Made by a program: the position numbers and the translations under genes. 64,000 bases of DNA from Octopus vulgaris (Eukaryota): positions 6,510,001 to 6,574,000 of the forward strand of contig OX597831.1 of NCBI GenBank assembly GCA_951406725.2. The letters run 5' to 3'. The notes under the pieces are model-generated. The model had not been told where the DNA came from and made no database searches. It saw only the letters and a program-made list of their open reading frames with translations. This document shows, in pieces, positions 3,242 to 60,645 of the stretch (position 1 is its first letter; each line of letters opens with the position of its first letter).

Positions 3242-4186
3242 TCATCATCATCATCATCATCATCGTTTAACGTCCGTTCTCCATGCTAGCATGGGTTGGA
3301 CGGTTCGACCGGGGATCTGGGAAGCCAGAAGGCTGCACCAGGCTCCAGTCTTATCTGGCAATGTTTCTACAGCTGGATGCCCTTCCTAACGCCAACCACT
3401 CCGTGAGTGTAGTGGGTGCTTTTTACGTGCCACCTGCACAGATGCCAGGCGAGGCTGGCAACGGCCACGGTCGGATTGGTGTATTTTATGTGCCACCGGC
3501 ACGGAAGCCAGTCGAGGCGGTGCTGGCATCGGCCACGAGTCAGATAGTGCTTTTTACGTACCACCAGACCAGGGATCCTGGCTGGTTCAATTCGATTTCA
3601 ATTTCGCTTGCCCCAAGATGTCTTCGCAAGCAAAGGGGGTTGGCATGGGTGCCTATCGTACGGTCGGATTGGTGTATTTTACGTGCCACCGGCACGGAAG
3701 CTAGTGGAGGCGGCGCTGGCATCGGCCACGAGTCGGATAGTGCTTTTTACGTACCACCAGTCCAGGGATCCTGGCTGGTTCAATTCGATTTCGATTTCGC
3801 TTGCCCCAAGATGTCTTCGCAAGCAAAGGGGGTTGGCATGGGTGCCTATCGTACGGTCGGATTGGTGTATTTTACGTGCCACCGGCACGGAAGCTAGTGG
3901 AGGCGGCGCTGGCATCGGCCACGAGTCGGATAGTGCTTTTTACGTACCACCAGTCCAGGGATCCTGGCTGGTTCAATTCGATTTCGATTTCGCTTGCCCC
4001 AACATGTCTTCGCAAGCAAAGGGGTTGGCATGGGTGCCTGTCGTACGGTCGGATTTGTGTATTTTACGTGCCACTGGCACGGAAGCCAGTGGACGCGGCG
4101 CTGGCATCGGCCACGAGTCGGATAGTGCTTTTTACGTACCACCAGACCAGGGATCCTGGCTGGTTCAATTCGATTTCGATTTCGCT
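3241..4186 (-). mobile_element. (GAT)n-tailed RTE-related repeat with internal tandem amplification
   Basis: Family 3' end at 3241-3440, followed by repeated internal modules. Confidence 0.8.
3467..4186. repeat. 193-bp tandem repeat, about 3.7 copies
   Basis: ccccaa(g/c)atgtcttcgc recurs at 3611, 3804 and 3997 (period 193). Confidence 0.9.
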
Positions 4187-4240
4187 TTGAACCAGCCAGG
4201 ATCCCTGGTCTGGTGGTACGTAAAAAGCACTATCCGACTA

Positions 4241-4472: not shown

Positions 4473-5612
4473 AAGAGCAGGAAGAGGTGCTAACCACAAA
4501 GTAGTAGGAGCAGATATGCCCCCTTTCCAAAGAAAGTTTTGAAAACAAATGCACAGATTAAAAAAAAAACTTGATGGTAATTAAACCAGCAGATTCAGTC
4601 AAATCGTCCAACCCATTCTAGCATGGAAAGTGGACGTTAAACGATGATGATGATATATATTAATCTGGAGTATAGTTTTAACAAATGGATGCTCTTTCTA
4701 TTACCAACTAAGTGGCAGCACAGATTCATTTTCCCTGCTTCCTTCTTCTCTCACTTTCTATAAGACAATCCATAATTTCAGGCCTCTCTAATTTATCTCT
4801 TTAATAAATCTCCTTTTATCATTATTTCAGCTAATGAGTCTCTTATTTATTATTAAGGATATCATGTCCCTACTTGATCTGATTAAAAAAACAACAACAA
4901 CAACAGCGACAATGTTTTGCAAGATTAATCCATCCTGAATTTTAAATATTTCAGCAACAATTCTTCTTGAAAGACCAACAGCCATTACCTGTCTTTGTGT
5001 CTTTGTTTTAGCCATCCCTCCTCCCACCTCTCTCTCTTTATCCCTCCCTGTCTTTCCCTCTTTCTCTCCCTCTCCCACCACTAATCCTTCCAATTAAACT
5101 CAGTTCACTTCGTTGTGACACCCTCTCCCTCTCACTTTCTCTCTCTCTCACACACTCTCTCTTTCTTACAGTCTCTCTCTCTCTCTCTCTCTCTTCCTCA
5201 CTCTCACCCCACTGGACATTTATATTTTTTTTCAACAAATTATTACACTAATTCTTTTTTTTACAAAATCCAAGCATTTTTAATGAGAAACAATATGAAC
5301 ATAAAAGCAACAGGGATAACATGGGACCAAAACATCACAACCAGACATTTTATACTTCCTAAAGCACTGACCCTGACCCCAACCTACAAACTTCACGGAA
5401 CTAACCACAAACATTCCACACAAGGTCTTTCCTCAGACATTTTTTTATTATGTTTGTAAACATTGCTTCCTTGAAATTTAATACGGCTTCCTTTGGGAGA
5501 GCAGGAAGAGGTGCTAACCACAAAGTAGTAGCAGCAGATATGTCCCCTTTCCAAAGAAAGTTTTGAAAACAAATGCACAGATTTAAAAAACAAACAAACA
5601 GGAAAAAAAAAA

Positions 5613-5740
5613 ACAATTTCAGCGTGGAAGGTGTTATAAGCCAGTTAAGAAACACACAAAAACCGTTAGAGTTGCTTCAACATTTAAATTTAATTTGTCA
5701 AAATATTTTCGTTGCTTTGAGACTGCGACCTGTTCACTAT
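5613..5740 (-). mobile_element. Truncated copy of the ~204-bp hammerhead-bearing element
   Basis: Inverted partner of 5741-5862; matches 12570-12773. Confidence 0.75.
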
Positions 5741-6382
5741 GCATCACAAAGTTTTGTCAGTGAACAGATCGCGGTCTCAAAGTGACAGAAATATTTTGAC
5801 AAATTAAATTTAAATGTTGAAGTGAATCTAACGGTTTTGTGTGTTTCTTAAATGGCTTATAACTCCGACGTCTGGCAGCTGACTTGGCAGACACCCATAA
5901 AATTATCAACCATCTTACAAACAATAACTCTGAGCACCTTTTCAAACTCCACCCGTCTAACACCCGTGGACATATTTACAAAGTCAGAAAACAACACAGC
6001 TCCCATGACTTCAGGAAACATTTTTTCACGCTGAGAGTTGCTGAAGCATGGAACAAACTGCCAGCATCAGTTGTTAGTTGTCGGAGCACTGCATCCTTCA
6101 AAACTTCCATGCTTCCTGAGATTCGCCAACACTACAACTGATTTTCTCCCCTCCATACACACACAAGCATGTATCTGACTCATACATTGTTCGCTTTCCA
6201 GACATTTGTACATTACTGCATATGCTTTATATGCACTTTCTGACAAGTTGTGGTGCACCTGAACACTGTATACAATAATTTCATTATTATTATTATTATA
6301 AACACCTTCCATGCTGCAATTGTTTTCGTTCCAGCACACGATCTCAGATCAAGTCACTCGCTATGCAAGTACATCTCCGTAA
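5741..6382 (+). mobile_element. ~204-bp hammerhead-bearing element interrupted by a CR1 fragment
   Basis: 5741-5862 plus 6296-6382 reconstitute the 50876-51079 copy. Confidence 0.8.
5863..6295 (+). mobile_element. CR1-like LINE 3' fragment with (TTA)n tail
   Basis: Encodes NTRGHIYKVRKQ...RKHFFTLRVAEAWNKLPASVV..S...FK, the CR1-type ORF2 C-terminus. TSD ttataa. Confidence 0.85.
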
Positions 6383-7638: not shown

Positions 7639-7990
7639 TCATCATCATCATCATCGTTTAACATCCACTTTCCTTGCTAGCATGGGTTGGACGATTTTGA
7701 CTGAGGGCTGGCGAACCAGTCTTGATCTGGCAGAGTTTCTACAGCTGGATGCCCTTCCTAACGCCAACCACTCCAAGAGTGTAGTGGATGCTTTTTACGT
7801 GCCACCGGCACAGGGGCCAGTCAGGTGGTACTGGCAACGACCTCGCTCGAATCCTTTTACACATGCCACCAGCACAGGTGCCAGTAAGGCGACGTTGGTA
7901 ACGATCACGCTCGAATGGTGCCCTTTTACATGCCACTGGCACGGAAGCCAATTGGTTGCTCTGGCAATGATCACGCTCGGATGGTGCTCA
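7639..7990 (-). mobile_element. (GAT)n-tailed RTE-related repeat
   Basis: Family consensus with three internal modules. Confidence 0.8.
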
Positions 7991-12043: not shown

Positions 12044-12310
12044 GACACCTGCGCTGGTGGCGTGTGTAAAAGGATTCGAGCGAGGTCGTTGCCAGTACCA
12101 CCTGACTGGCCCCCGGCCGGTGGCACATAAAAGCACCCACTACACTCTCAGAGTGGTTGGCATTAGGAAGGGCATCTAGCTGTAGAAACTCTGCCAGATC
12201 AAGATTGGAGCCTGGTGCAGCCCTCTGGTTCGCCAGCCCTCAGTCAAAATCGTCCAACCCATGCTAGCATGGAAAGTGGATGTTAAACGATGATGATGAT
12301 GATGATGATG
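12044..12310 (+). mobile_element. (GAT)n-tailed RTE-related repeat
   Basis: Family consensus ending aaacgatgatgat. Confidence 0.8.
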
Positions 12311-12569
12311 TTTAAGGTTAACAAATGTTGAATGAGAACGATGTAGCAACATTTAGAGGCTTTCGTTTGGCTGTTTTGCAAAGAATCCCTTTTCCTAAGA
12401 GCAAATTTGTCAATGTCTTTATTGATATTGTGTATCATCCTAATTGTGACAACCACAAATTGACCGATAGACCCACATTCCTTAACTGCCATCTTCATTT
12501 TACTTCAACAGCTTGGCTGATGCAATATCTCCCATGTCCAGGTCTTTTCTACACAACACTCTAGTTATT

Positions 12570-12773
12570 ACGGAGATGTACTTGCATAGCAAGTGACCTG
12601 GTCTGAGATCGTGTGCTGGAACGAAAACAATTGCAGCGTGGAAGGTGTTTATAAGCCATTTAAGAAACACACAAAAACCGTTAGATTCACTTCAACATTT
12701 AAATTTAATTTGCCAAAATATTTTCGTCGCTTTGAGACTGCGACCAGATCACTGACAAAACTTTGTGCTGCCT
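12570..12773 (-). mobile_element. ~204-bp hammerhead-bearing element, full length
   Basis: Matches 50876-51079 in reverse; 11-bp TSD ctctagttatt (12559-12569 and 12774-12784). Confidence 0.8.
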
Positions 12774-13108: not shown

Positions 13109-13291
13109 TCATCATCATCATCATCGTTTAATGTCCGCTTTCCATGCTAGCATGGGTTGGATGGTTCGACCAGGGATCTGGGAAGCCAGGTGGCTGCACC
13201 AGGCTCCAGTCTGGTCTGGCAGTGTTTCTACAGGTGGATGCCCTTCCTAACACCAACCACTCCATGAGTGTAGTGGGTGCTTTTTACGTGC
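13109..13291 (-). mobile_element. (GAT)n-tailed repeat nested in a decayed SINE A
   Basis: Family consensus; SINE A remnants at about 13000-13108 and 13292-13420. Confidence 0.7.
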
Positions 13292-14815
13292 CCACTACTC
13301 CTAAGATATTGGTCTGTCTGGGCCATAGTAGAAGACTCTAGCCCATGGTGACATGCAGTGGGTCTGCACCCAAAGCTACCTGGTCGCAAAGCAAGCTTCT
13401 TAACTACACAGCCATGCCTGTGGCTAAAAAATATGATTTTCTCTTACAATATATATTTTCACCTTCAGTTTAGTTTATCAATTGTTGTTCAAGGATTAAG
13501 GATATAAAAACATTCTGTTGTTCTGTTTACTTGGTGACATTCCTATTTTTAACCCCCACCCCAACCCATCCCCTCCACACACACACACACACACACACAC
13601 ACCACATTCCATGGGAAGAATTTCAGCAACCTCTTTTCTTTCCTCCTTGTAAGGTGTTGCATTAGTTTAAATGTGTCAAAATTAAGTGTAGACTTCCTTT
13701 TAGGGAAATGGTTCTAATATCAGAAAATTTCATACACACAAACTGAGATAGCAACACAAACTGAGATAGCAACACAAATCGAGATAGCAACACAAATATA
13801 TACATCTGTAAATGCCATATATTTTAAATTTATCGAGTCTGACAAAAGGGTTTTGAAATTTTTACTCGAGTATTTTGAAAAATTGTTACTTTTGACAAGT
13901 TTTGATTTTCAAATCTGATCCTAAACATTTCAAGTTTTATTTTTTTCAGTAAAATAGTCTGCAGGGAATGATTAAGAATAAAGTGAGCCTGTTTAACAAA
14001 AGTCTGGGACAGACATATAAGAATGGTTATGCTTGTATTTTAATCAACATGTATTGTAATAGGATACAACACTAGAAATACCAAAGCACACATTTCCTTC
14101 TTTTTAAAAAAAATTTGCTCTTTTTTTGCTTGAATGTACTTTATTCTGGATGGACTTATTCTGAATTTGTTTACAAAAACTGGTAAACAATAAATTCTTC
14201 TGCCATTTCGAGAAAAAATATTTTTATGGCTGATAAATTCTCAATATTCAAAATAAATCTTTCAACAAGGCATGGCATCAGTTTTGTATGAAGAGTGTGG
14301 AAAACATTATTTGGATTGAGTTGTTAAGAAATGAGTGTCAACCTTTGGAAGTACAGTAACAATTTGAGGTATGTTTCAACATTATTAAACCTCATCAGTA
14401 AAACACAGTCAAACCATTCCTAAGAAATTAATTCTTCATATATTGTTTAATGAATGATAAGTGTATTAATTAACTGTTGTGTATTGACTATAATTATTAA
14501 TTACTGTGAATTCTAATAATGATCCTCACTCTGGTGTTAATGAATGGGCAGCAATTAGTGGAATTATGTTAAATGGTAAGTTTAGAGATATGTGTACACA
14601 TACTTTATTATATGTCAGAACTTTCAAGAGTTTGTATTTAGCTAACTGAAAGAGAAAGCAAACGACTGCTGAAACCTGAAGACAAAGCTGATGTGAATAT
14701 ATTGTTTTTAAATAATAATTAGTTAAATAATGGCAAAAAAAAAAAAAATTAGTCACCCAAATCAAGTACTAGTAGCTTTGGTCTGAAATGTACTGAAATC
14801 TTGCTGTTTTGGATT

Positions 14816-15275
14816 TCATCATCATCATCGTTTAACGTCCGCTTTCCATGCTAACATGGGTTGGACGGTTCGACTGGGGTCTGGGAAGCCAGGAGGCTGC
14901 ACCAGGCCCAGTCTGATCTGGTAGTGTTTCTACAGCTGGATGCCCTTCCTAACGCCAACCACTCTGTGAGTGTAGTGGGTGCTTTTTACGTGCCAGGCGA
15001 GGCTGGCAATGACCACGATCGGTTGGTGCTTTTTACGTGCCACCGGCACAGAGGCCAGTCGGGGTGGCGCTGGCAACGGCCACATTCGGATGGTGCTTTT
15101 ACGTGCCACCGGCACTGGTATCACAACTACAAATTCCATTGATTTTTGAGCGATTTCGAATCCGATTTCACTTGCCTTTCAACAGGTCTTCGCAAGTACA
15201 GTTTTATGTCCCAAGAAGGAAAGGTATGCATAAGTGGGCTGGCTACATCCCAGGTAGAGGCCACTGGTTATGGCC
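14816..15275 (-). mobile_element. (GAT)n-tailed RTE-related repeat, longest 5' extent
   Basis: Extends upstream to cttgcgaagacctg, similar to the RTE ORF end cttgagaggacctg at about 6612-6625. Confidence 0.75.
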
Positions 15276-22756: not shown

Positions 22757-24689
22757 TATATATACCTTATACGAGTGCCATGTAAAAAGCACTTGTGTCA
22801 TGTACTGGTGCCACATAAAAACACCCATGCCGGTGCCACATAAAAGCATCCAACACACTGTAATGGTGTTAGGAAGGGCATCCAACCATGGAAACCGTGC
22901 AAAATTAAACTGGAGCCTGGTGCAGCTCCCTTGCTTGCCAGTTCTGGTCAAACTGTCCAACCCATGCCAGCATGGAAAATGGATGTTAAATGATGATAAT
23001 GATGATGATAGTTCTACGGTTAAGAAGGTTTGGTTTGGGGCTCAGTGTGTGTGTGTCTTTGTGTTTGTCCCTCACCCCTTGACATCTGGTGTTAGTTTGT
23101 TTAAACCAATAGAATAAATACCAGATTTAAAAGTACATACTGGGGTCAATTTGTTTGGCTAAAACCTCTCAGTGTAGTGCTCCAGCATGGTTGCAGTCCG
23201 ACAACTGAAACAAGTAAAAGAGGCAAACGATATACTGGGCATCCAAAAGTTAGAATTAATTGACCCTGGATCTCCACATCTAAGTGCAGGCCTGGGTAAA
23301 ATTTTTGGAGGAAGACTGGTAGTTGGCCATGCATGAATGTCTCTCCTTCACCATACCACTGATGTTTGTGCAAAGGAAAGGTTTCAGACTTAAACCAATA
23401 CATCTTGGCACCTCTTGATGTTTTTTGCAAACAACTTGCACATGCAAATGCTACCAGTCAAAAACTCCACATACCGGAAGCTAGCAAGTGTATGGGGTCA
23501 TCAGGAGAGAATGCACGCTGTTTCGGGGCCTACCTCTTGACGACATCACTGATATGAGGCCTCACCTGCTAGATCAGCTGGTTATCAAATAAAGCTCAAT
23601 ATTCTTCTAGCCATCGCTCATCGTCTCTTTTTAACCAAATCCAATGGCTAGCCTTCTCCACTGTAGTTTGGATGTAGGTCATGGTGGTATTCACTTTATC
23701 ACAGGTTCATTACAGGTGTCACCATCAAAATGCCAAGAATCAAAGCAGACGCGATCTCACTTGATCCTTTAACAGTTCTGCTAATCCATTAACCCTGGAT
23801 TTGAACTCAGAGTCCAGAAAACTGGGACAAATATACCAGACATTCCATTCAATGTTCTCATGACTGAAAATTCGTTTCCTTCCAAATGAAGTACAAAATG
23901 GAGAAGTTGAAAGTCCGGATCTTAGAAAGTTGTAATTAGACAAGGGTTATATTAAACAATAAGAGTTTCTTTATTGATAACAATAATTAATTTTAAAAAT
24001 TAATACATTCATCTAATTCGTCTCATTAAAATGTATGTCATTGTAACAAATAATTATTATAATTAGGAGACATTGTTACATTACGGACAAGCTAATTACT
24101 AAACAACGAAGAAGCCTTTACTAGGTTGGTTGATTTGCCAGAAACAGTTGTCAAATCTCTTTCAAATCACAACTTACTGGTTTTGTTTTTGTTTTTGTTT
24201 TTTCTTCTGTTCTAAGCTCAGAATAGATTTATAGAGTCCAAAGTACACAATAACTGGAAGAAAAAAAACAAAAAAACAAAAACAAATGCATCCGGGATGG
24301 TCACTGCTGATGTGTCTTTAATGATAAGTCTGATTGATCAGGACTGACTTGATTTACTAAAGGATAATTACAAAAGAAACAGTCTTTATTCATTTGTTTA
24401 ATAAATATTGGCAGAAAATAGGAAACAACAGACTCTGCTTTTCACACACACGCATGCACGCACACACACATGCACACACACACACATTCTCTCTCATCAA
24501 TAAAGGTTGAAGCTTTTGTTTCAATGTTTCTTTTGTTGAAAGAAATTGCTTTGCTTTACTCAATTCTTCAAAAACCATGAAGATTTTAGTGAGAATGAAT
24601 TTGCCATTTTTAAGTTGGCTTTTGAAAAATAAATTAAAATGAAATCTTAACAGAAAGTTTTAACGAACATAAATTGGTGTCATGAAAGC

Positions 24690-24948
24690 AGGGTTACAGT
24701 CAATCCCATGATATTAAAAAGGGTTACAGTCAATCCCATGATATTAAAAAGGGTTACAGTCAATCCCATGATATTAAAAAGGGTTACATTCAATCCCATG
24801 ATATTAAAAAGGGTTACAGTCAATCCCATGATATTAAAAAGGGTTACAGTCAATCCCATGATATTAAAAAGGGTTACAGTCAATCCCATGATATTAAAAA
24901 GGGTTACATTCAATCCCATGATATTAAAAAGGGTTACAGTCAATCCCA
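24690..24948. repeat. 30-bp minisatellite, about 8.6 copies
   Basis: Unit gggttacagtcaatcccatgatattaaaaa. Confidence 0.95.
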
Positions 24949-25324
24949 GGAAATAAATTTTTAATTTTCACTTGCAATCCCAGTTATATCTGAGAGTAGA
25001 AACATTTCTTTTGACAGAATCAGTGTGTCAAGTATGAACTATTTCAATTAACTAATTAACACTGATAGGCAATGGAATGACTTTATCGCTTCAATTAGGG
25101 TGAAAGTTTAAGACAATATTTGTACTTTGAACAGTGAAACTTTAAATTGTTTATCTGTTTCACTGATTTATCACTTCACCAACACTTTACTATTATAATC
25201 ATTATTATTATTAATATGACTAATATTATTAGTATTGTTATTATTGTTGTTGTTAGTGTAATTGTCAAAAATAATTTTTATAGAGCATATTTTTTGAAAA
25301 GCAAAGTTTATTTTGGCCAAGTTC

Positions 25325-26343: not shown

Positions 26344-26375
26344 TGTGTGTGTATGTGTGTGTGTTGTTTTGACAT

Positions 26376-26780
26376 TCATCATCATCATCATCGTTTAACA
26401 TCTGTTTTCCATGCTAGCATGGGTTGGATGGTTTGACCGGGATCTGGGAAGCCAGGAGGCTGCACCGGGCTCCAGTCTGATCTGGCAGTGTTTTTACAGC
26501 TGGATGCCCTTCCCAACACCAACCACTCCATGAGTGTAGTGGGTGATTTTTACGTGCCACCGGCACAGGTGCCAGGGGAGGCTGGCAACAGCCACGATCA
26601 GTTGGTGCTTTTTACGTACCACTGGCTCGGAAGCCAATCGAGGCGGTGCTAGCATCAGCCACGTACGGATGGTGCCTTTTTTAGGTGCTAGGGTAGGCTG
26701 GCAATGGCCACAATTGGTTGGTGCTTTTTATGTGCCACTGGTATGGAAGCCAGTCAAGGCGTGGCTGGCATTGGCCATGA
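26376..26780 (-). mobile_element. (GAT)n-tailed RTE-related repeat
   Basis: Family consensus. Confidence 0.8.
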
Positions 26781-32352: not shown

Positions 32353-32756
32353 TATTCTTTTATTCATTTCAGTCATTTGACTGCGGCCATGCTGGAGCAC
32401 CGCCTTTAGTTGAGCAAATCAACCCCAGGATTTATTCTTTGTGAGCCTAGTACTTATTCTATCGGACTCTTTTTGCTGAACCGCTAAGTTACGGGGACGT
32501 AAACACACCAGCATCAGTTGTCAAGCATTGTTGGGGGGGACAAACACAGACACAAACACACACACACACACACACACATACATATATATACGATGGGCTT
32601 CTTTCAGTTTCCGTCTACCAAATCCACTCACAAGACTTTGGCACCTTGTGCAAGTGTCTTCTACTATGGCCTCGGGCCGACCAAAGCCTTGTGAGTGGAT
32701 TTGGTAGATGGAAACTGAAAGAAGCCCATCGTATATATGTATACACACACACACAC

Positions 32757-37077: not shown

Positions 37078-37557
37078 CAACACCATTCGAGCATGATTGT
37101 TACCTGTGTCGCCCTACTGGCACTTGTGCTGGTGGCACGTGAAAAAAACATTTGAGCGAGGTCGTTGTCGTTGCCAGTGCCACTGGACTGACTCCTCTGC
37201 AGGTGGCACATAAAAAACACCAACTGATCGTGGCCGTTGCCACCCTCATCTGCCAGTACCGTCTGACTGGCCCTCGTGCTGGTGGCACGTAAAAGAATCC
37301 ACTACACTCTTGGAGTGGTTGGCATTAGGAAGGGATCCAGCAGTAGAAACTCTGCCAGATCAGATTGGAGCTTGTGGCACGTAAAAGCACCCACTACACT
37401 CTTGGAGTAGTTGGCGTTAGGAAGGGCATCCAGCTGTAGAAACACTGCCAGATCAGATTGGAGTTTGGTGCAGCCTCCTGGCTTGCCAGCCCTCAGTCAA
37501 ATCTTCCAACTCATGCCAGCATGGAAAGTGGACGTTAAACAATGATGATGATGATGA
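37078..37557 (+). mobile_element. (GAT)n-tailed RTE-related repeat with an internal ~90-bp duplication
   Basis: Family consensus; the ccactacactcttggag...cagattggag segment occurs twice. Confidence 0.8.
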
Positions 37558-39255: not shown

Positions 39256-39405
39256 TTAGCAGTTACTTTCACTTTCACCGCTGTTCACTCGTTGCCTGAT
39301 TGAGCAGATTTCTTCTTCCAGTTGCCGAATCCGTTTGTCCTTCATGGACATTTGTTCCTTTAGGCTTTTGATCTCTTCCACTTGTTGAAAGTAGGCTTTG
39401 CGTAG
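39256..39405 (-). CDS. CORO2B: Type II coronin-like, last coding exon (coiled coil)
   Basis: Acceptor ttttcttcttcag; encodes LRKAYFQQVEEIKSLKEQMSMKDKRIRQLEEEICSIRQRVNSGESESNC*. This resembles the CORO2A/2B C-terminal coiled coil (recalled, not searched). Confidence 0.85.
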   Translation of the reverse strand, partial: LRKAYFQQVEEIKSLKEQMSMKDKRIRQLEEEICSIRQRVNSGESESNC

Positions 39406-40134
39406 CTGAAGAAGAAAATCAGAAAATAAAATTAAAAGAAAGAAAGGAAGGAAGAAGGTTATATGGAATTAAACAATTAGCAAAGTTCAAGAAAATTAAT
39501 CTTGCTTAAATGCCTAAAACTGATTGGCTTAATTCTGAGATAAACTAGGGCAGTACCCCAGCATGGCCGTAGCCTAATGACTGAAACAAGCAAAACGTAA
39601 AAGACAGGATGTTGCAACCCCGCAGCCTATTCATTTATTCTGTTTTATTGTTATTTAAAGAGAATCTCAGAAAATTCCAAACCCAAAAAACAACAATCAA
39701 TTCAGGATTTCTAAAGAAATTTTTTTCTATTTTTGAAACCAATTTTGATACATTTCTTTTCTTCAACAAAATATCAGATTTCAAATTTGTAAGAAATAAC
39801 AATATGACAACAGGTAAGAAGAGGTTATTTCAATAATTAAATTTGTTATAAAATATATGAAAAAAGAACATATTTGCATGTGAATTAAAAGTTCTGCTTT
39901 GGAACAAATAAACGAAGGATTTTCTATTATTGGTTAGTCTAATCTTCCAAGATTAGAGAACAATAATTAAATTGAGTTATTCAAAGACATTTCTATGGGA
40001 TTAACAAATAAACATTTAGGGCTTTCAAAGAATTTCAAAGATAATCTCTTCAATTATCCTTCAAGAATAAATTTTCTTAAATTGATTAAACCTATTTCAT
40101 ATTTTATTTTCCTCCTCTCTTCTTCCTATGTTAC

Positions 40135-49850: not shown

Positions 49851-50370
49851 TACTGTGAAAGGGAGGGGTGCGGCACACTTTGTACTGTGAAAGGGAGGGG
49901 TGGGGAACACTTTGTACTGTAAAAGGGAGGTGTGGGGCACACTTTGTACTGTGAAAGGGAGGGGTGCGGCACACTTTGTACTGTAAAAGGGAGGTGTGGG
50001 GCACACTTTGTACTGTGAAAGGGAGGTGTGGGGCACACTTTGTACTGTGAAAGGGAGGTGTGGGGCACACTTTGTACTGTGAAAGGGAGGGGTGGAGGCA
50101 CACTTTGTACTGTGAAAGGGAGGGGCGGGGCACACTTTGTACTGTGAAAGGGGGGTGTGGGGCACACTTTGTACTGTGAAAGGGAGGGGTGGAGGCACAC
50201 TTTGTACTGTGAAAGGGAGGGGCGGGGCACACTTTGTACTGTGAAAGGGAGGGGCGGGGCACACTTTGTACTGTGAAAAGGGAGGGGTGGGGCACACTTT
50301 GTACTGTGAAAAGGAGGGGTGGGGCACACTTTGTACTGTGAAAGGGAAGGGTGGGGCACACTTTGTACTG
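49851..50370. repeat. 31-bp G-rich minisatellite, about 17 copies
   Basis: Unit approximately cacactttgtactgtgaaagggaggggtgggg, with a variable G-rich half. Confidence 0.95.
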
Positions 50371-50875
50371 ACCCTGAAACAGGTACAAGATGGTTTGATG
50401 GCTCAAGTCTCTTCTACGCAATTATGCTATTCATGGAAATATTATTCAGTAAAATGAAATATTAGTAACATGACACAACAATATAGAGATTAACGTTTAT
50501 ACCAGAAGTGTGACCTTTTAAAAATGACTAACAAAAAGTTATAAAAAAAAAACATAAAAATTCAATAAAGAAAATTTACTCAAATTCCAACAACTGAGAT
50601 TTTGGCTGATTATTTCAGAATGTGAATGTAGCAAGTTATTTTGTTGGTTTGGAAACTCAAACTTGTTAAATTTTGTAAAGTGATTAATATAAGAATAAAT
50701 TAATTTAAATTCTAAAAACACAGAATATATTAATAACTTTGGAGTAAATATTAAAATAAACAAAAATGTTAGTATTTGGTGATTTTCTTATCAAATAAAC
50801 CACCTCTAAATTACTCAACTAAAAAATTACATAAGAATGGGGTTGAAAAAAGATATTTTCTCTATTTTTATCTTA

Positions 50876-51079
50876 GCAGCACAAAGTTTTGTCAGTGAAC
50901 AGGTCGTGGTCTCAAAGCGACGAAAATATTTTGACAAATTAAATTTAAATGTTGAAGTGAATCTAACGGTTTTTGTGTGTTTCTTAAATGGCTTATAAAC
51001 ACCTTCCACACTGCAATTGTTTTCGTTCTAGCACACAATCTCAGATCAAGTCACTCGCTATGCAAGTACATCTCCATAA
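50876..51079 (+). mobile_element. ~204-bp hammerhead-bearing element, full length
   Basis: 7-bp TSD tatctta (50869-50875 and 51080-51086); no TIR and no tail. Confidence 0.8.
50888..50938 (+). ncRNA. Predicted minimal type-I hammerhead ribozyme, G3-C8 variant
   Basis: TTTGTCA GTGAACA G GTCGT ggtctcaaa GCGAC GAAA ATAT T T TGACAAA: 7-bp stem I, 5-bp stem II and a palindromic loop 3. Confidence 0.6.
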
Positions 51080-51723
51080 TATCTTATAATTTTTATTTAT
51101 TTATTTTAAAATGAAAAAAAAAATCAGCAGTCAAATGGATTTACCAGTCTAACTATTTATGGTAGAGAAAATAATTCTGTAATAAAAAAAAAAATCCAAT
51201 TTAGTTCTTTCAGGTAAGTATTCTAAAATCTAATAAATCCCTATTTATGAGTGTCATCAGCTCTCCAAGTTCATGTTGGACATGTCAACATAGTTTCAGA
51301 TGCAGAAAAACATAATTACTTTAACAAATAGTTTCATTTGCCTCTCAAAACTAACCAGACAATAAGTACAAAAATTAAGCTAAAAGATAAAAAAGTTAAA
51401 ACTATGTTTTCAAATCAAGGAGAAAAAACAAAAACAGAAAAAAAAATTTCTACTATTCTTAAAACAGTTACTAAATTTAAAAAAAAAAAAGGAAAATAAT
51501 ATTTTTGATATTGAAACGAAGCTAATGAGTATTTCTAAGAACCCTGTATTTCTATCCTTCCCAGCTGTACCAGGACATGTTTCAACCAAAGAAAACTTCT
51601 TCAGTGAAGCATAGTACAACAAATTAACCAACACTTAACTATACTGTTGCTGCTAAATACTTTAAATTCTAGTTTGTTTGGTTTTTTTACAACATTTTTA
51701 GAACTTCTATCAGCATTGAAATG

Positions 51724-56859: not shown

Positions 56860-57240
56860 TTCGTGCCAATGGCATGTTTAAGCACACCATTTGAGCATGA
56901 TTGTTACCGCATCGCCTTACTAGCACTTGTGCTGGTGGCATGTGAAATATTCGAGCGAGGTCGTCGCCAGTGCTGCTGTACTGGCTCCTGTGCAGGTGGC
57001 ACGTATAAAGCACCATTTGGGCATGGTCATTGCCAGTACCACCAAACTGGACCTCGTGCCGGTGGCACGTAAAAGCACCCACTACACTATCGGAGTGGTT
57101 GGTGTTAGGAAGGGCATCCAGCTGTAGAAACTCTGCCAGATCAAGATTGGAGCTTGGTGCAGCCATCTGGTTCGCCAGCCTTCAGTCATTCGTCCAACCC
57201 ATGCTAGCATGGAAAGCGGATGTTAAACGATGATGATGAT
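56860..57240 (+). mobile_element. (GAT)n-tailed RTE-related repeat
   Basis: Family consensus. Confidence 0.8.
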
Positions 57241-60406: not shown

Positions 60407-60645
60407 CCACTGGCACATGTAAAAAGATTCGAGTGAGGTCGTTGCCAGTACCGCCTGACTGGCCCCCGTGCCGGTGGCACATAAAAAGCACCCACTACAC
60501 TCACGGAGTGGTTGGCATTAGGAAGGGCATCCAGCTGTAGAAACTCTGCCAGATCAAGATTGGAGCCTGGTGCGGCCGTCTGGTTTGCCAGCCCTCAGTC
60601 AAAATCGTCCAACCCATGCTAGCATGGAAAGCGGACGTTAAACGA
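60407..60645 (+). mobile_element. (GAT)n-family repeat lacking the tail
   Basis: Family consensus up to gttaaacga. Confidence 0.8.

Follow-up and report, generated by a model that had tools for sequence, protein, structure and literature searches.

A 64,000-nt stretch of the Octopus vulgaris genome (assembly GCA_951406725.2, contig OX597831.1, positions 6,510,001 to 6,574,000 of the forward strand; hereafter the window) contains several copies of a dispersed repeat of about 204 bp with a hammerhead-like motif near its 5' end (Table 1). This repeat is probably the terminal piece of an autonomous Penelope-like element (PLE) with a predicted hammerhead ribozyme, whose 3-8 base pair appears to have undergone a natural compensatory swap, and its many short copies would be stubs of reverse transcription that started inside the parent RNA. 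A BLAST search of the window with the copy at 50876-51079 yielded five segments, which correspond to three insertion events. The initial annotation had listed four copies, starting at 5613, 5741, 12570 and 50876. These repeats are real, but the first two are arms of one head-to-head insertion (5610-6382) with a 12-bp target-site duplication (TSD) around the whole unit, and the segment at 6296-6382 had been missed. The direct arm of this unit is split by a later insertion (5864-6295), which has an (ATT)n tail as well as a TTATAA duplication and looks like the 3' fragment of a long interspersed element. TSDs of different length were correctly recognized, namely 7 bp (TATCTTA) at the 50876 copy, which starts without the first 4 bases of the family's modal 5' end, and 11 bp at 12568-12771. 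Two other descriptions have to be revised: the ends are not nearly fixed, as the 3' ends fall into two classes at element positions 141-149 and 204, and the absence of an open reading frame (ORF) was a misreading, because the repeat is the end of a PLE and includes, from the ATG at 50988 onward, the initial ~30 codons of the parent ORF. In agreement with the reported lack of a tRNA head, ARAGORN found 0 tRNAs, and the repeat does not qualify as a tRNA-derived short interspersed element (SINE).

Table 1. Coordinates of the repeat copies, their parts and the host gene context in the window (pLTR stands for pseudo-long terminal repeat and RT for reverse transcription).
Feature	Position	Strand	Remarks
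Left TSD	50869..50875	+	7 bp, TATCTTA; from the sequence
Terminal piece of PLE (pLTR end and ORF start)	50876..51079	+	Long-end class
Type I minimal hammerhead fold (predicted)	50888..50938	+	Predicted cut after 50931
Hammerhead stem I	50888-50894/50932-50938	+	
Hammerhead core G3-A9	50895-50901	+	G3 50895, C8 50900; extra G 50902
Hammerhead stem II	50903-50907/50917-50921	+	G12-A15.1 at 50922-50925
Palindromic helix III	50925-50930	+	U17 at 50931
Parent PLE ORF, first ~30 codons	50988..51079	+	ATG at 50988; cut off at long 3' end
Short 3' end class site, probable first internal RT start	51017..51023	+	45/140 segments end at element position 141-149
PLE "tail" between both 3' end classes	51024..51079	+	64/140 segments end at position 204, the probable second RT start; tail concept from PMC11167929
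Right TSD	51080..51086	+	TATCTTA
Second long-class copy	12568..12771	-	11-bp TSD; G3-C8 core but A9U
Inverted short-class arm of head-to-head insertion	5610..5738	-	Element 19-148
Direct arm, part one	5739..5863	+	Element -1 to 123; hammerhead damaged
Direct arm, part two	6296..6382	+	Element 118-204, beyond later insertion
Coiled-coil exon (host gene context)	39259..39468	-	Not named by Pfam

Positions in the hammerhead are numbered as is common for these ribozymes. The RNA of the 50876 copy reads UUUGUCA-GUGAACA-G-GUCGU(loop)GCGAC-GAAA-AUAU-U-U-UGACAAA, in agreement with the reading given initially. All residues of the type I three-way junction (U4 G5 A6, A9, G12 A13 A14, A15.1-U16.1, H17) are present in this copy and represent the majority state in 91 segments. 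The 3-8 pair is of the Watson-Crick type, formed as G3-C8, and the canonical CUGANGA is missing. As had been noted, G3 and C8 occur in all four hammerhead-bearing segments of the window, and A9 is followed by an extra nucleotide, which C3-G8 relatives of the element share. Helix III is palindromic, but its drawing as 1 bp with an AUAU loop is not unique, as 2 bp with a UA loop can also be drawn. AAUAUU is a perfect palindrome nested in a 10-nt palindrome, and the calculated duplexes are weak (-0.2 kcal/mol for the 6-mer and -3.8 kcal/mol for the 10-mer). The fold starting at 50888 had been described as complete and is the only one in the window with an intact core; the copy at 12570 carries A9U, that at 5741 shows an altered G10.1 and disruption around G12, and that at 5613 lacks the 5' strand of stem I. 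In minimum free energy folding of the plus strand, stems I and II form (z = -2.28; 6 of 200 shuffles fold as well), and folding of the minus strand is weaker (z -1.18). None of the 143 Rfam matches obtained for the window at E<=10 is a hammerhead, consistent with the expectation that the motif is invisible to standard searches.

The link to PLEs suggested in the initial annotation, which had also proposed a search for parent elements, was substantiated by the finding of a parent ORF, and the repeat almost certainly originates as the end of a PLE. For 29 of the 30 best reverse transcriptase (RT) loci, the element occurs ~1.25 kb further downstream, one of the 29 being a 39-bp match cut by the locus edge. 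Shared upstream sequence occurs in a few copies, and a junction with the upstream untranslated region (UTR) is carried by 554. Beyond position 204, 35 copies run on into the ORF, whose ATG is element position 113, and in loci L238/L335, L240, and L244 the element continues in frame into an ORF for RT and endonuclease (EN). In L335 the arrangement is pLTR-ORF-pLTR, interrupted by a single stop and a single frameshift, and the ORF starts inside the element; pLTRs formed by a partial tandem with the ORF start inside are likewise seen in L240 and L244. Further hallmarks of PLEs were found as well, namely the hammerhead motif in the pLTR, a one-sided tail, and, at the 5' end, an inverted 5'-truncated copy. 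Pfam recognized the GIY-YIG endonuclease above its cut-off in the parent ORF, and the linkage of one ORF for RT and GIY-YIG with the repeat is that of an EN+ PLE. The Pfam model RVT_1 does not match the parent RT, which was identified by visible RT motifs and by homologs named RT-domain proteins. The N-terminus encoded by the parent ORF is 39% identical to that of a sister family (E 7e-28). A 781-aa Neptune-type PLE was also considered as parent and rejected, as it has no genuine sequence in common with the element and possesses a U3-A8 hammerhead of its own. This Neptune-type element is itself young (L185-L187, L037-L060), with intact 781-aa RT-EN frames in many copies, an upstream second frame, and the U3-A8 hammerhead at its 3' end.

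According to the clade descriptions of Craig et al. (2021, PMC8557442), the C-terminal EN+ clades Neptune, Nematis, and Hydra share with the parent the order of RT and GIY-YIG, the CX3CxxC linker, CCHH-like residues, (TA)n targeting, inverted 5'-truncated copies, and a tail, the last three being described there as PLE features. Unlike these clades, the parent has an insertion resembling the insertion in the fingers domain (IFD), DKS instead of DKG, and a short, Nematis-like linker. The same descriptions place such an insertion, situated between RT3 and RT4, in clades with an N-terminal EN and in some Coprina, and do not report it for those with a C-terminal EN. RT3 and RT4 are 132 aa apart in the parent and 130-136 aa in 58 homologs, versus 63 aa in the co-resident Neptune-type element; the lack of an IFD at this place, characteristic of Neptune, Nematis, and Hydra, thus does not apply to the parent RT. 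The combination of a ~70-aa IFD-like RT3-RT4 insertion, a C-terminal GIY-YIG domain, and DKS was observed in the parent and the sister PLE (L221:2971-6045, minus strand; L225:3442-7377, plus strand; homologs P0001-P0077) and possibly marks an undescribed PLE clade. The repeat itself is not a new class of mobile element.

Two motifs of the element, each counted along with its reversed sequence as control, gave 4,072 and 6,689 exact matches in the genome, with 0 for both controls. To obtain an unbiased sample, we took 90 out of the first 100 places where the first motif occurs and merged head-to-head pairs. Thirty of 86 sampled loci represent a single insertion inside a Helitron-like element, and 29 of these were dropped before counting, as were the overlapping locus duplicates L068, L070, L073, and L077, L079 (same place as L021), L011 (a duplicate of L010), and the local duplication L121 and L122. 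The unbiased sample, the best BLAST matches, and the window together provided 140 segments in 85 loci. The collapsed insertion, found in L074, L087, L088, and 27 other loci on C1, is a head-to-head unit within a non-autonomous element of ~2 kb with a 3' hairpin and CTAG, a carrier that we take to be Helitron-like. A Helitron/DINE identity was also considered for the repeat itself and was rejected.

The 3' ends form the two classes of Table 1. At the other end, 31 of the 140 segments begin with AGATGC, the modal 5' end, and a further 35 begin no more than three bases away from it. Among unbiased segments, 35 of 79 start at positions -3 to 0, 6 at 61-66, and just one at the predicted cut, which indicates that cut RNA is not the usual template and that the RNA copied was likely uncut. 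The 3' flanks often consist of (TA)n or other AT-rich DNA. Long-end segments share no 3' flanks, except for one pair with an unrelated repeat. The 54 classified units of the unbiased sample comprise 25 single, 28 head-to-head, and 1 other, and of the 24 head-to-head units that could be classified at both ends, 22 pair a long arm with a short one (P = 2e-5 in a binomial test against one half); in the whole set, this applies to 34 of 43. Head-to-head joints also occur in the contig sets of organisms A, B, E, and F, all of which contain the element. None of the 15 joints listed, out of 20 in these four sets, runs from end to start, and contigs cannot show RNA ends. A codon-position test on the dispersed copies gave no signal (mismatches 4.0/6.2/4.5%).

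The PLE PAc of Anolis, a member of Poseidon (Frangieh et al., 2024, PMC11167929), offers a model for such copies. Its protein, predicted to be a dimer, nicks and extends both strands of AT-rich DNA, RT starts at two internal sites in the 5' region of the ORF with the tail between them, and uncut RNA is the dominant template. The parent RNA of the octopus element would likely begin with the modal 5' end, which lies slightly upstream of the hammerhead. By analogy with PAc, the PLE protein would place its nicks ~12 nt apart on the two strands of an AT-rich target, RT would begin at two internal sites of the RNA, both near the beginning of the ORF, and copying from either site to the RNA 5' end would leave stubs of ~146 and ~204 nt. 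If both nicks were used and primed at different sites, head-to-head units of one long and one short arm would arise, and rarer read-through transcripts would give longer and full-length copies. The stubs would likely be dead ends from uncut RNA. We regard this scheme of two internal RT starts on an RNA beginning at AGATGC as reasonably probable. In both systems the hammerhead adjoins the ORF start, two 3' ends lie in the 5' region of the ORF with a tail between them, and targets are AT-rich; the first RT start is situated ~85-92 nt past the cut site in PAc and ~87-92 nt past the predicted cut here (PMC11167929). They differ in tail length (~57-60 nt here versus 30-40 nt in PAc) and in protein lineage, and the main text on PAc contains no description of a pairing of long and short inverted arms (PMC11167929). 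This pairing represents a genomic test of the way in which a dimeric PLE protein uses its two nicks and two RT start sites.

Two points speak against this scheme. The duplication around the 43 head-to-head units measures 10-14 bp in 19, in favor of the scheme, and is longer in 5, all in microsatellites, but is shorter than 10 bp in another 19, counts obtained with a TSD finder that has no null control. Moreover, the modal 5' end resembles a 3' splice site with a branch-like CTAAC, a pyrimidine tract, and AG, and transcription is only presumed to start there. The fixed 5' end might accordingly be a splice junction and the short copies products of spliced RNA, and an intron ending at helix I has indeed been described in D. 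virilis (PMC4209133, in its account of that element). We nevertheless consider this rather unlikely, as no common first exon precedes the short copies: of 68 upstream flanks only 4, all collinear, match the parent UTR beyond TA repeats, and the AG is kept in most copies.

The initial annotation had viewed the repeat as a retrozyme-like, possibly circRNA-forming family. A stand-alone retrozyme would have tandem units that are transcribed, cut to monomers, circularized, and re-inserted with the help of a PLE. A size of ~200 nt, low GC content, a type I hammerhead, and PLE ancestry are indeed traits of non-LTR retrozymes as these are portrayed in PMC7229834 and bioRxiv 10.64898/2026.07.22.740005. 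A search for tandem copies, which had been recommended, revealed no clear array in the 54 unbiased units, whereas a targeted look identified a single head-to-tail array of 8 units with G3-C8 cores (L336). In contrast to the retrozymes of these two accounts, the repeat is thus not tandem apart from this array, its ends do not coincide with the cut site, and it is collinear with the end and ORF start of a coding PLE rather than being a non-coding unit. In L336, the (TA)n between the units varies in length, which is compatible with local duplication. On this layout and these ends, the retrozyme and circRNA interpretation was rejected, and a stand-alone retrozyme appears highly improbable. The array (L336:5114-6454, G000:C28) lies beside a piece of the parent ORF, its units consist of element 3-149, (TA)n, and 10 nt, the last one being partial, and it resembles an array of the retrozyme type that arose from a PLE end.

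Short copies are far more numerous than ORF-linked ones, and some 204-bp copies could in principle be transcribed from an internal promoter, as was described for Penelope of D. virilis in the promoter analysis of PMC2377424, and be re-copied in trans like a SINE. Such a non-autonomous derivative would also fit the GGUCUCAAA loop of most dispersed copies versus GGAUUUUA in the youngest autonomous copies, but the GUCUCAAA loop is also present in older ORF-linked copies (L244, L232), and the non-CpG variants shared in the coding part include ones found in ORF-linked copies. Indels shared by at least 8% of copies number four upstream and none in the coding part. Furthermore, the template of the anole PLE must reach ~55 nt beyond the RT start (PMC11167929), and the stubs lack such sequence; the absence of shared 3' flanks among long-end segments argues in the same direction. 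A SINE-like derivative thus seems quite unlikely, and origin directly from the parent PLE is preferred.

The G3-C8 state is strongly represented in the family. When positions 3, 7, and 8 were left free, the first 100 matches comprised 95 G3-C8, 2 G3-U8, and 1 each of G3-G8, U3-C8, and C3-C8. In a young sister PLE (53% RT identity), the corresponding site carries CCA-CUGAUGC-G-GUCAC..GUGAC-GAAA-GAAC-UU, and the copies of this PLE stop at the two corresponding codon positions. This sister (1,312-aa frame; L225:7883-7938, L227, L228, L229) has an A9C hammerhead and a GTAAGT donor-like site ~30 nt upstream. In an older related family, which has 578 exact matches versus 3 for the control, the sequence is GUCA-CUGAAGA-G-GUC and continues into the ORF start of the sister; the search pattern fixed GTCA, the core, and GGTC beforehand, so that the free evidence in this family is the downstream GUGAC-GAAA and the ORF start only. 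Hammerheads of the C3-G8 type that include the extra nucleotide are located just behind the ORF in three metagenome relatives (reversed control 0). A relaxed finder applied to 36 metagenome loci gave 6 matches, 4 of them C3-G8 (one on the opposite strand), 1 U3-A8, and 1 G3-G8 upstream of an ORF, and no G3-C8. C3-G8 is thus likely the ancestral state, and since sister families and distant relatives keep it in the same fold, G3-C8 looks like a natural compensatory change, as far as the sequences can tell. A covariation analysis, proposed initially for the whole genome, was performed on a 14-row alignment, in which 88.7% of cells pair versus 21-47% for slid controls, the 3-8 pair is CG in 9 rows, GC in 4, and unpaired in 1, and one stem II pair covaries (AU 7, GC 5); these counts are not independent, given the relatedness of the rows and the single evolutionary event behind the swap.

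Several findings temper this interpretation, besides the preset pattern and the relatedness of the rows. Within the family, the core is not significantly more conserved than the remainder of the element (mismatches 25/686, 3.6%, versus 385/6800, 5.7%; permutation P = 0.13), an outcome that the initial annotation would have taken as evidence against the ribozyme. Within-family conservation is a weak test, because inserted copies decay neutrally, and conservation is visible between families. Of 58 copies covering the fold, 29 are intact. A G3-G8 mismatch occurs in six autonomous or long copies (L197, L198, L244, L255, L256, L157), where it may represent an intermediate stage of the swap or else a subsequent loss; these six copies, together with A9C in the sister, indicate that the lineage tolerates damaged cores. 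In addition, the predicted cleavage residue is U17, which supports weaker cleavage.

It is conceivable that the octopus PLE has the proposed origin but that its G3-C8 fold no longer cuts and persists as a relic or a protein-binding structure. The lack of a peak of insertion 5' ends at the cut site, the G3-G8 and A9C cores, the unimpaired in vitro insertion of hammerhead mutants (PMC11167929), and the poor cutting by minimal PLE hammerheads, as given in the activity data of PMC4209133, all agree with such a loss. Conversely, both 3-8 partners changed, while U4, G5, A6, G12-A15.1, U16.1, G10.1-C11.1, and the palindrome stayed the same across families whose flanks barely align, and a double transversion at just positions 3 and 8 is hard to explain without selection for the pair. 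We judge loss of cleavage somewhat doubtful and retention of cleavage by the predicted G3-C8 hammerhead moderately probable. The predicted hammerhead would most likely still cut, slowly, in the parent transcript, either as a dimer via the AAUAUU palindrome or with the help of the PLE protein. The hammerhead of the anole PLE cuts only with its protein, and an engineered C3G/G8C exchange partly rescues it (PMC11167929); the G3-C8 state is engineered there and natural here.

Many traits of the octopus hammerhead recur in the minimal type I hammerheads of metazoan PLEs as characterized by Cervera and de la Peña (2014, PMC4209133), including the location in the pLTR, the extra nucleotide between 9 and 10.1, G10.1-C11.1, the palindromic short helix III, and the occurrence mostly as single motifs with some close pairs on opposite strands. 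The variants presented there differ from the one found here in being C3-G8 or U3-A8, and U3-A8 is the natural 3-8 covariation reported in the motif descriptions of PMC3088659 and PMC4209133. A natural G3-C8 hammerhead was not found in the literature searched; Lünse, Weinberg and Breaker (2017) and file S2 of PMC8557442 lie outside that search and may bear on novelty. Matches for G3-C8 or C3G-G8C in this literature, which excludes Repbase and Dfam, were PMC11167929, with the engineered exchange, and PMC8495972 and PMC3884650, which may or may not be relevant. The function of PLE hammerheads is an open question (PMC11167929, and the discussion of the motif in PMC8557442), and a natural 3-8 flip with C3-G8 relatives in the same genome represents direct comparative evidence for selection on the catalytic fold in PLEs. 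Since CUGANGA descriptors and Rfam miss thousands of these motifs, claims that a PLE clade "lacks" hammerheads merit re-examination with a relaxed 3-8 pair. More tentatively, an active natural G3-C8 hammerhead might be fixed in a high-copy PLE lineage of an undescribed clade, with stubs that record double priming, a different internal RT start site being used at each of the two target nicks.

As for the host gene, a Pfam genome search placed a match to the coronin domain PF16300 on the minus strand, at a distance of 1.3 kb past the end of the window, and the coiled-coil exon on the same strand (Table 1) presumably encodes the coronin C-terminus. A search of the window for coronin motifs found nothing. 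Based on the PF16300 match and the exon, the 50876 copy most likely sits antisense in a coronin intron, and the antisense placement proposed initially is upheld.

Another abundant dispersed repeat family of ~200-300 bp, starting at (TCA)n tracts, is present at 1140-2109, 3248-3448, 7642-7868, 12110-12314, 13109-13309, 14816-15011, 26375-26575, 37383-37557, 57015-57186, and 60411-60645. A long near-perfect hairpin between (TA)n tracts (32585-32737), which has a chance match to a plant miRNA model, is probably a miniature inverted-repeat transposable element. Tandem repeats with periods of 193, 30, and 32 bp extend over 3467-4237, 24630-24989, and 49857-50402, respectively.
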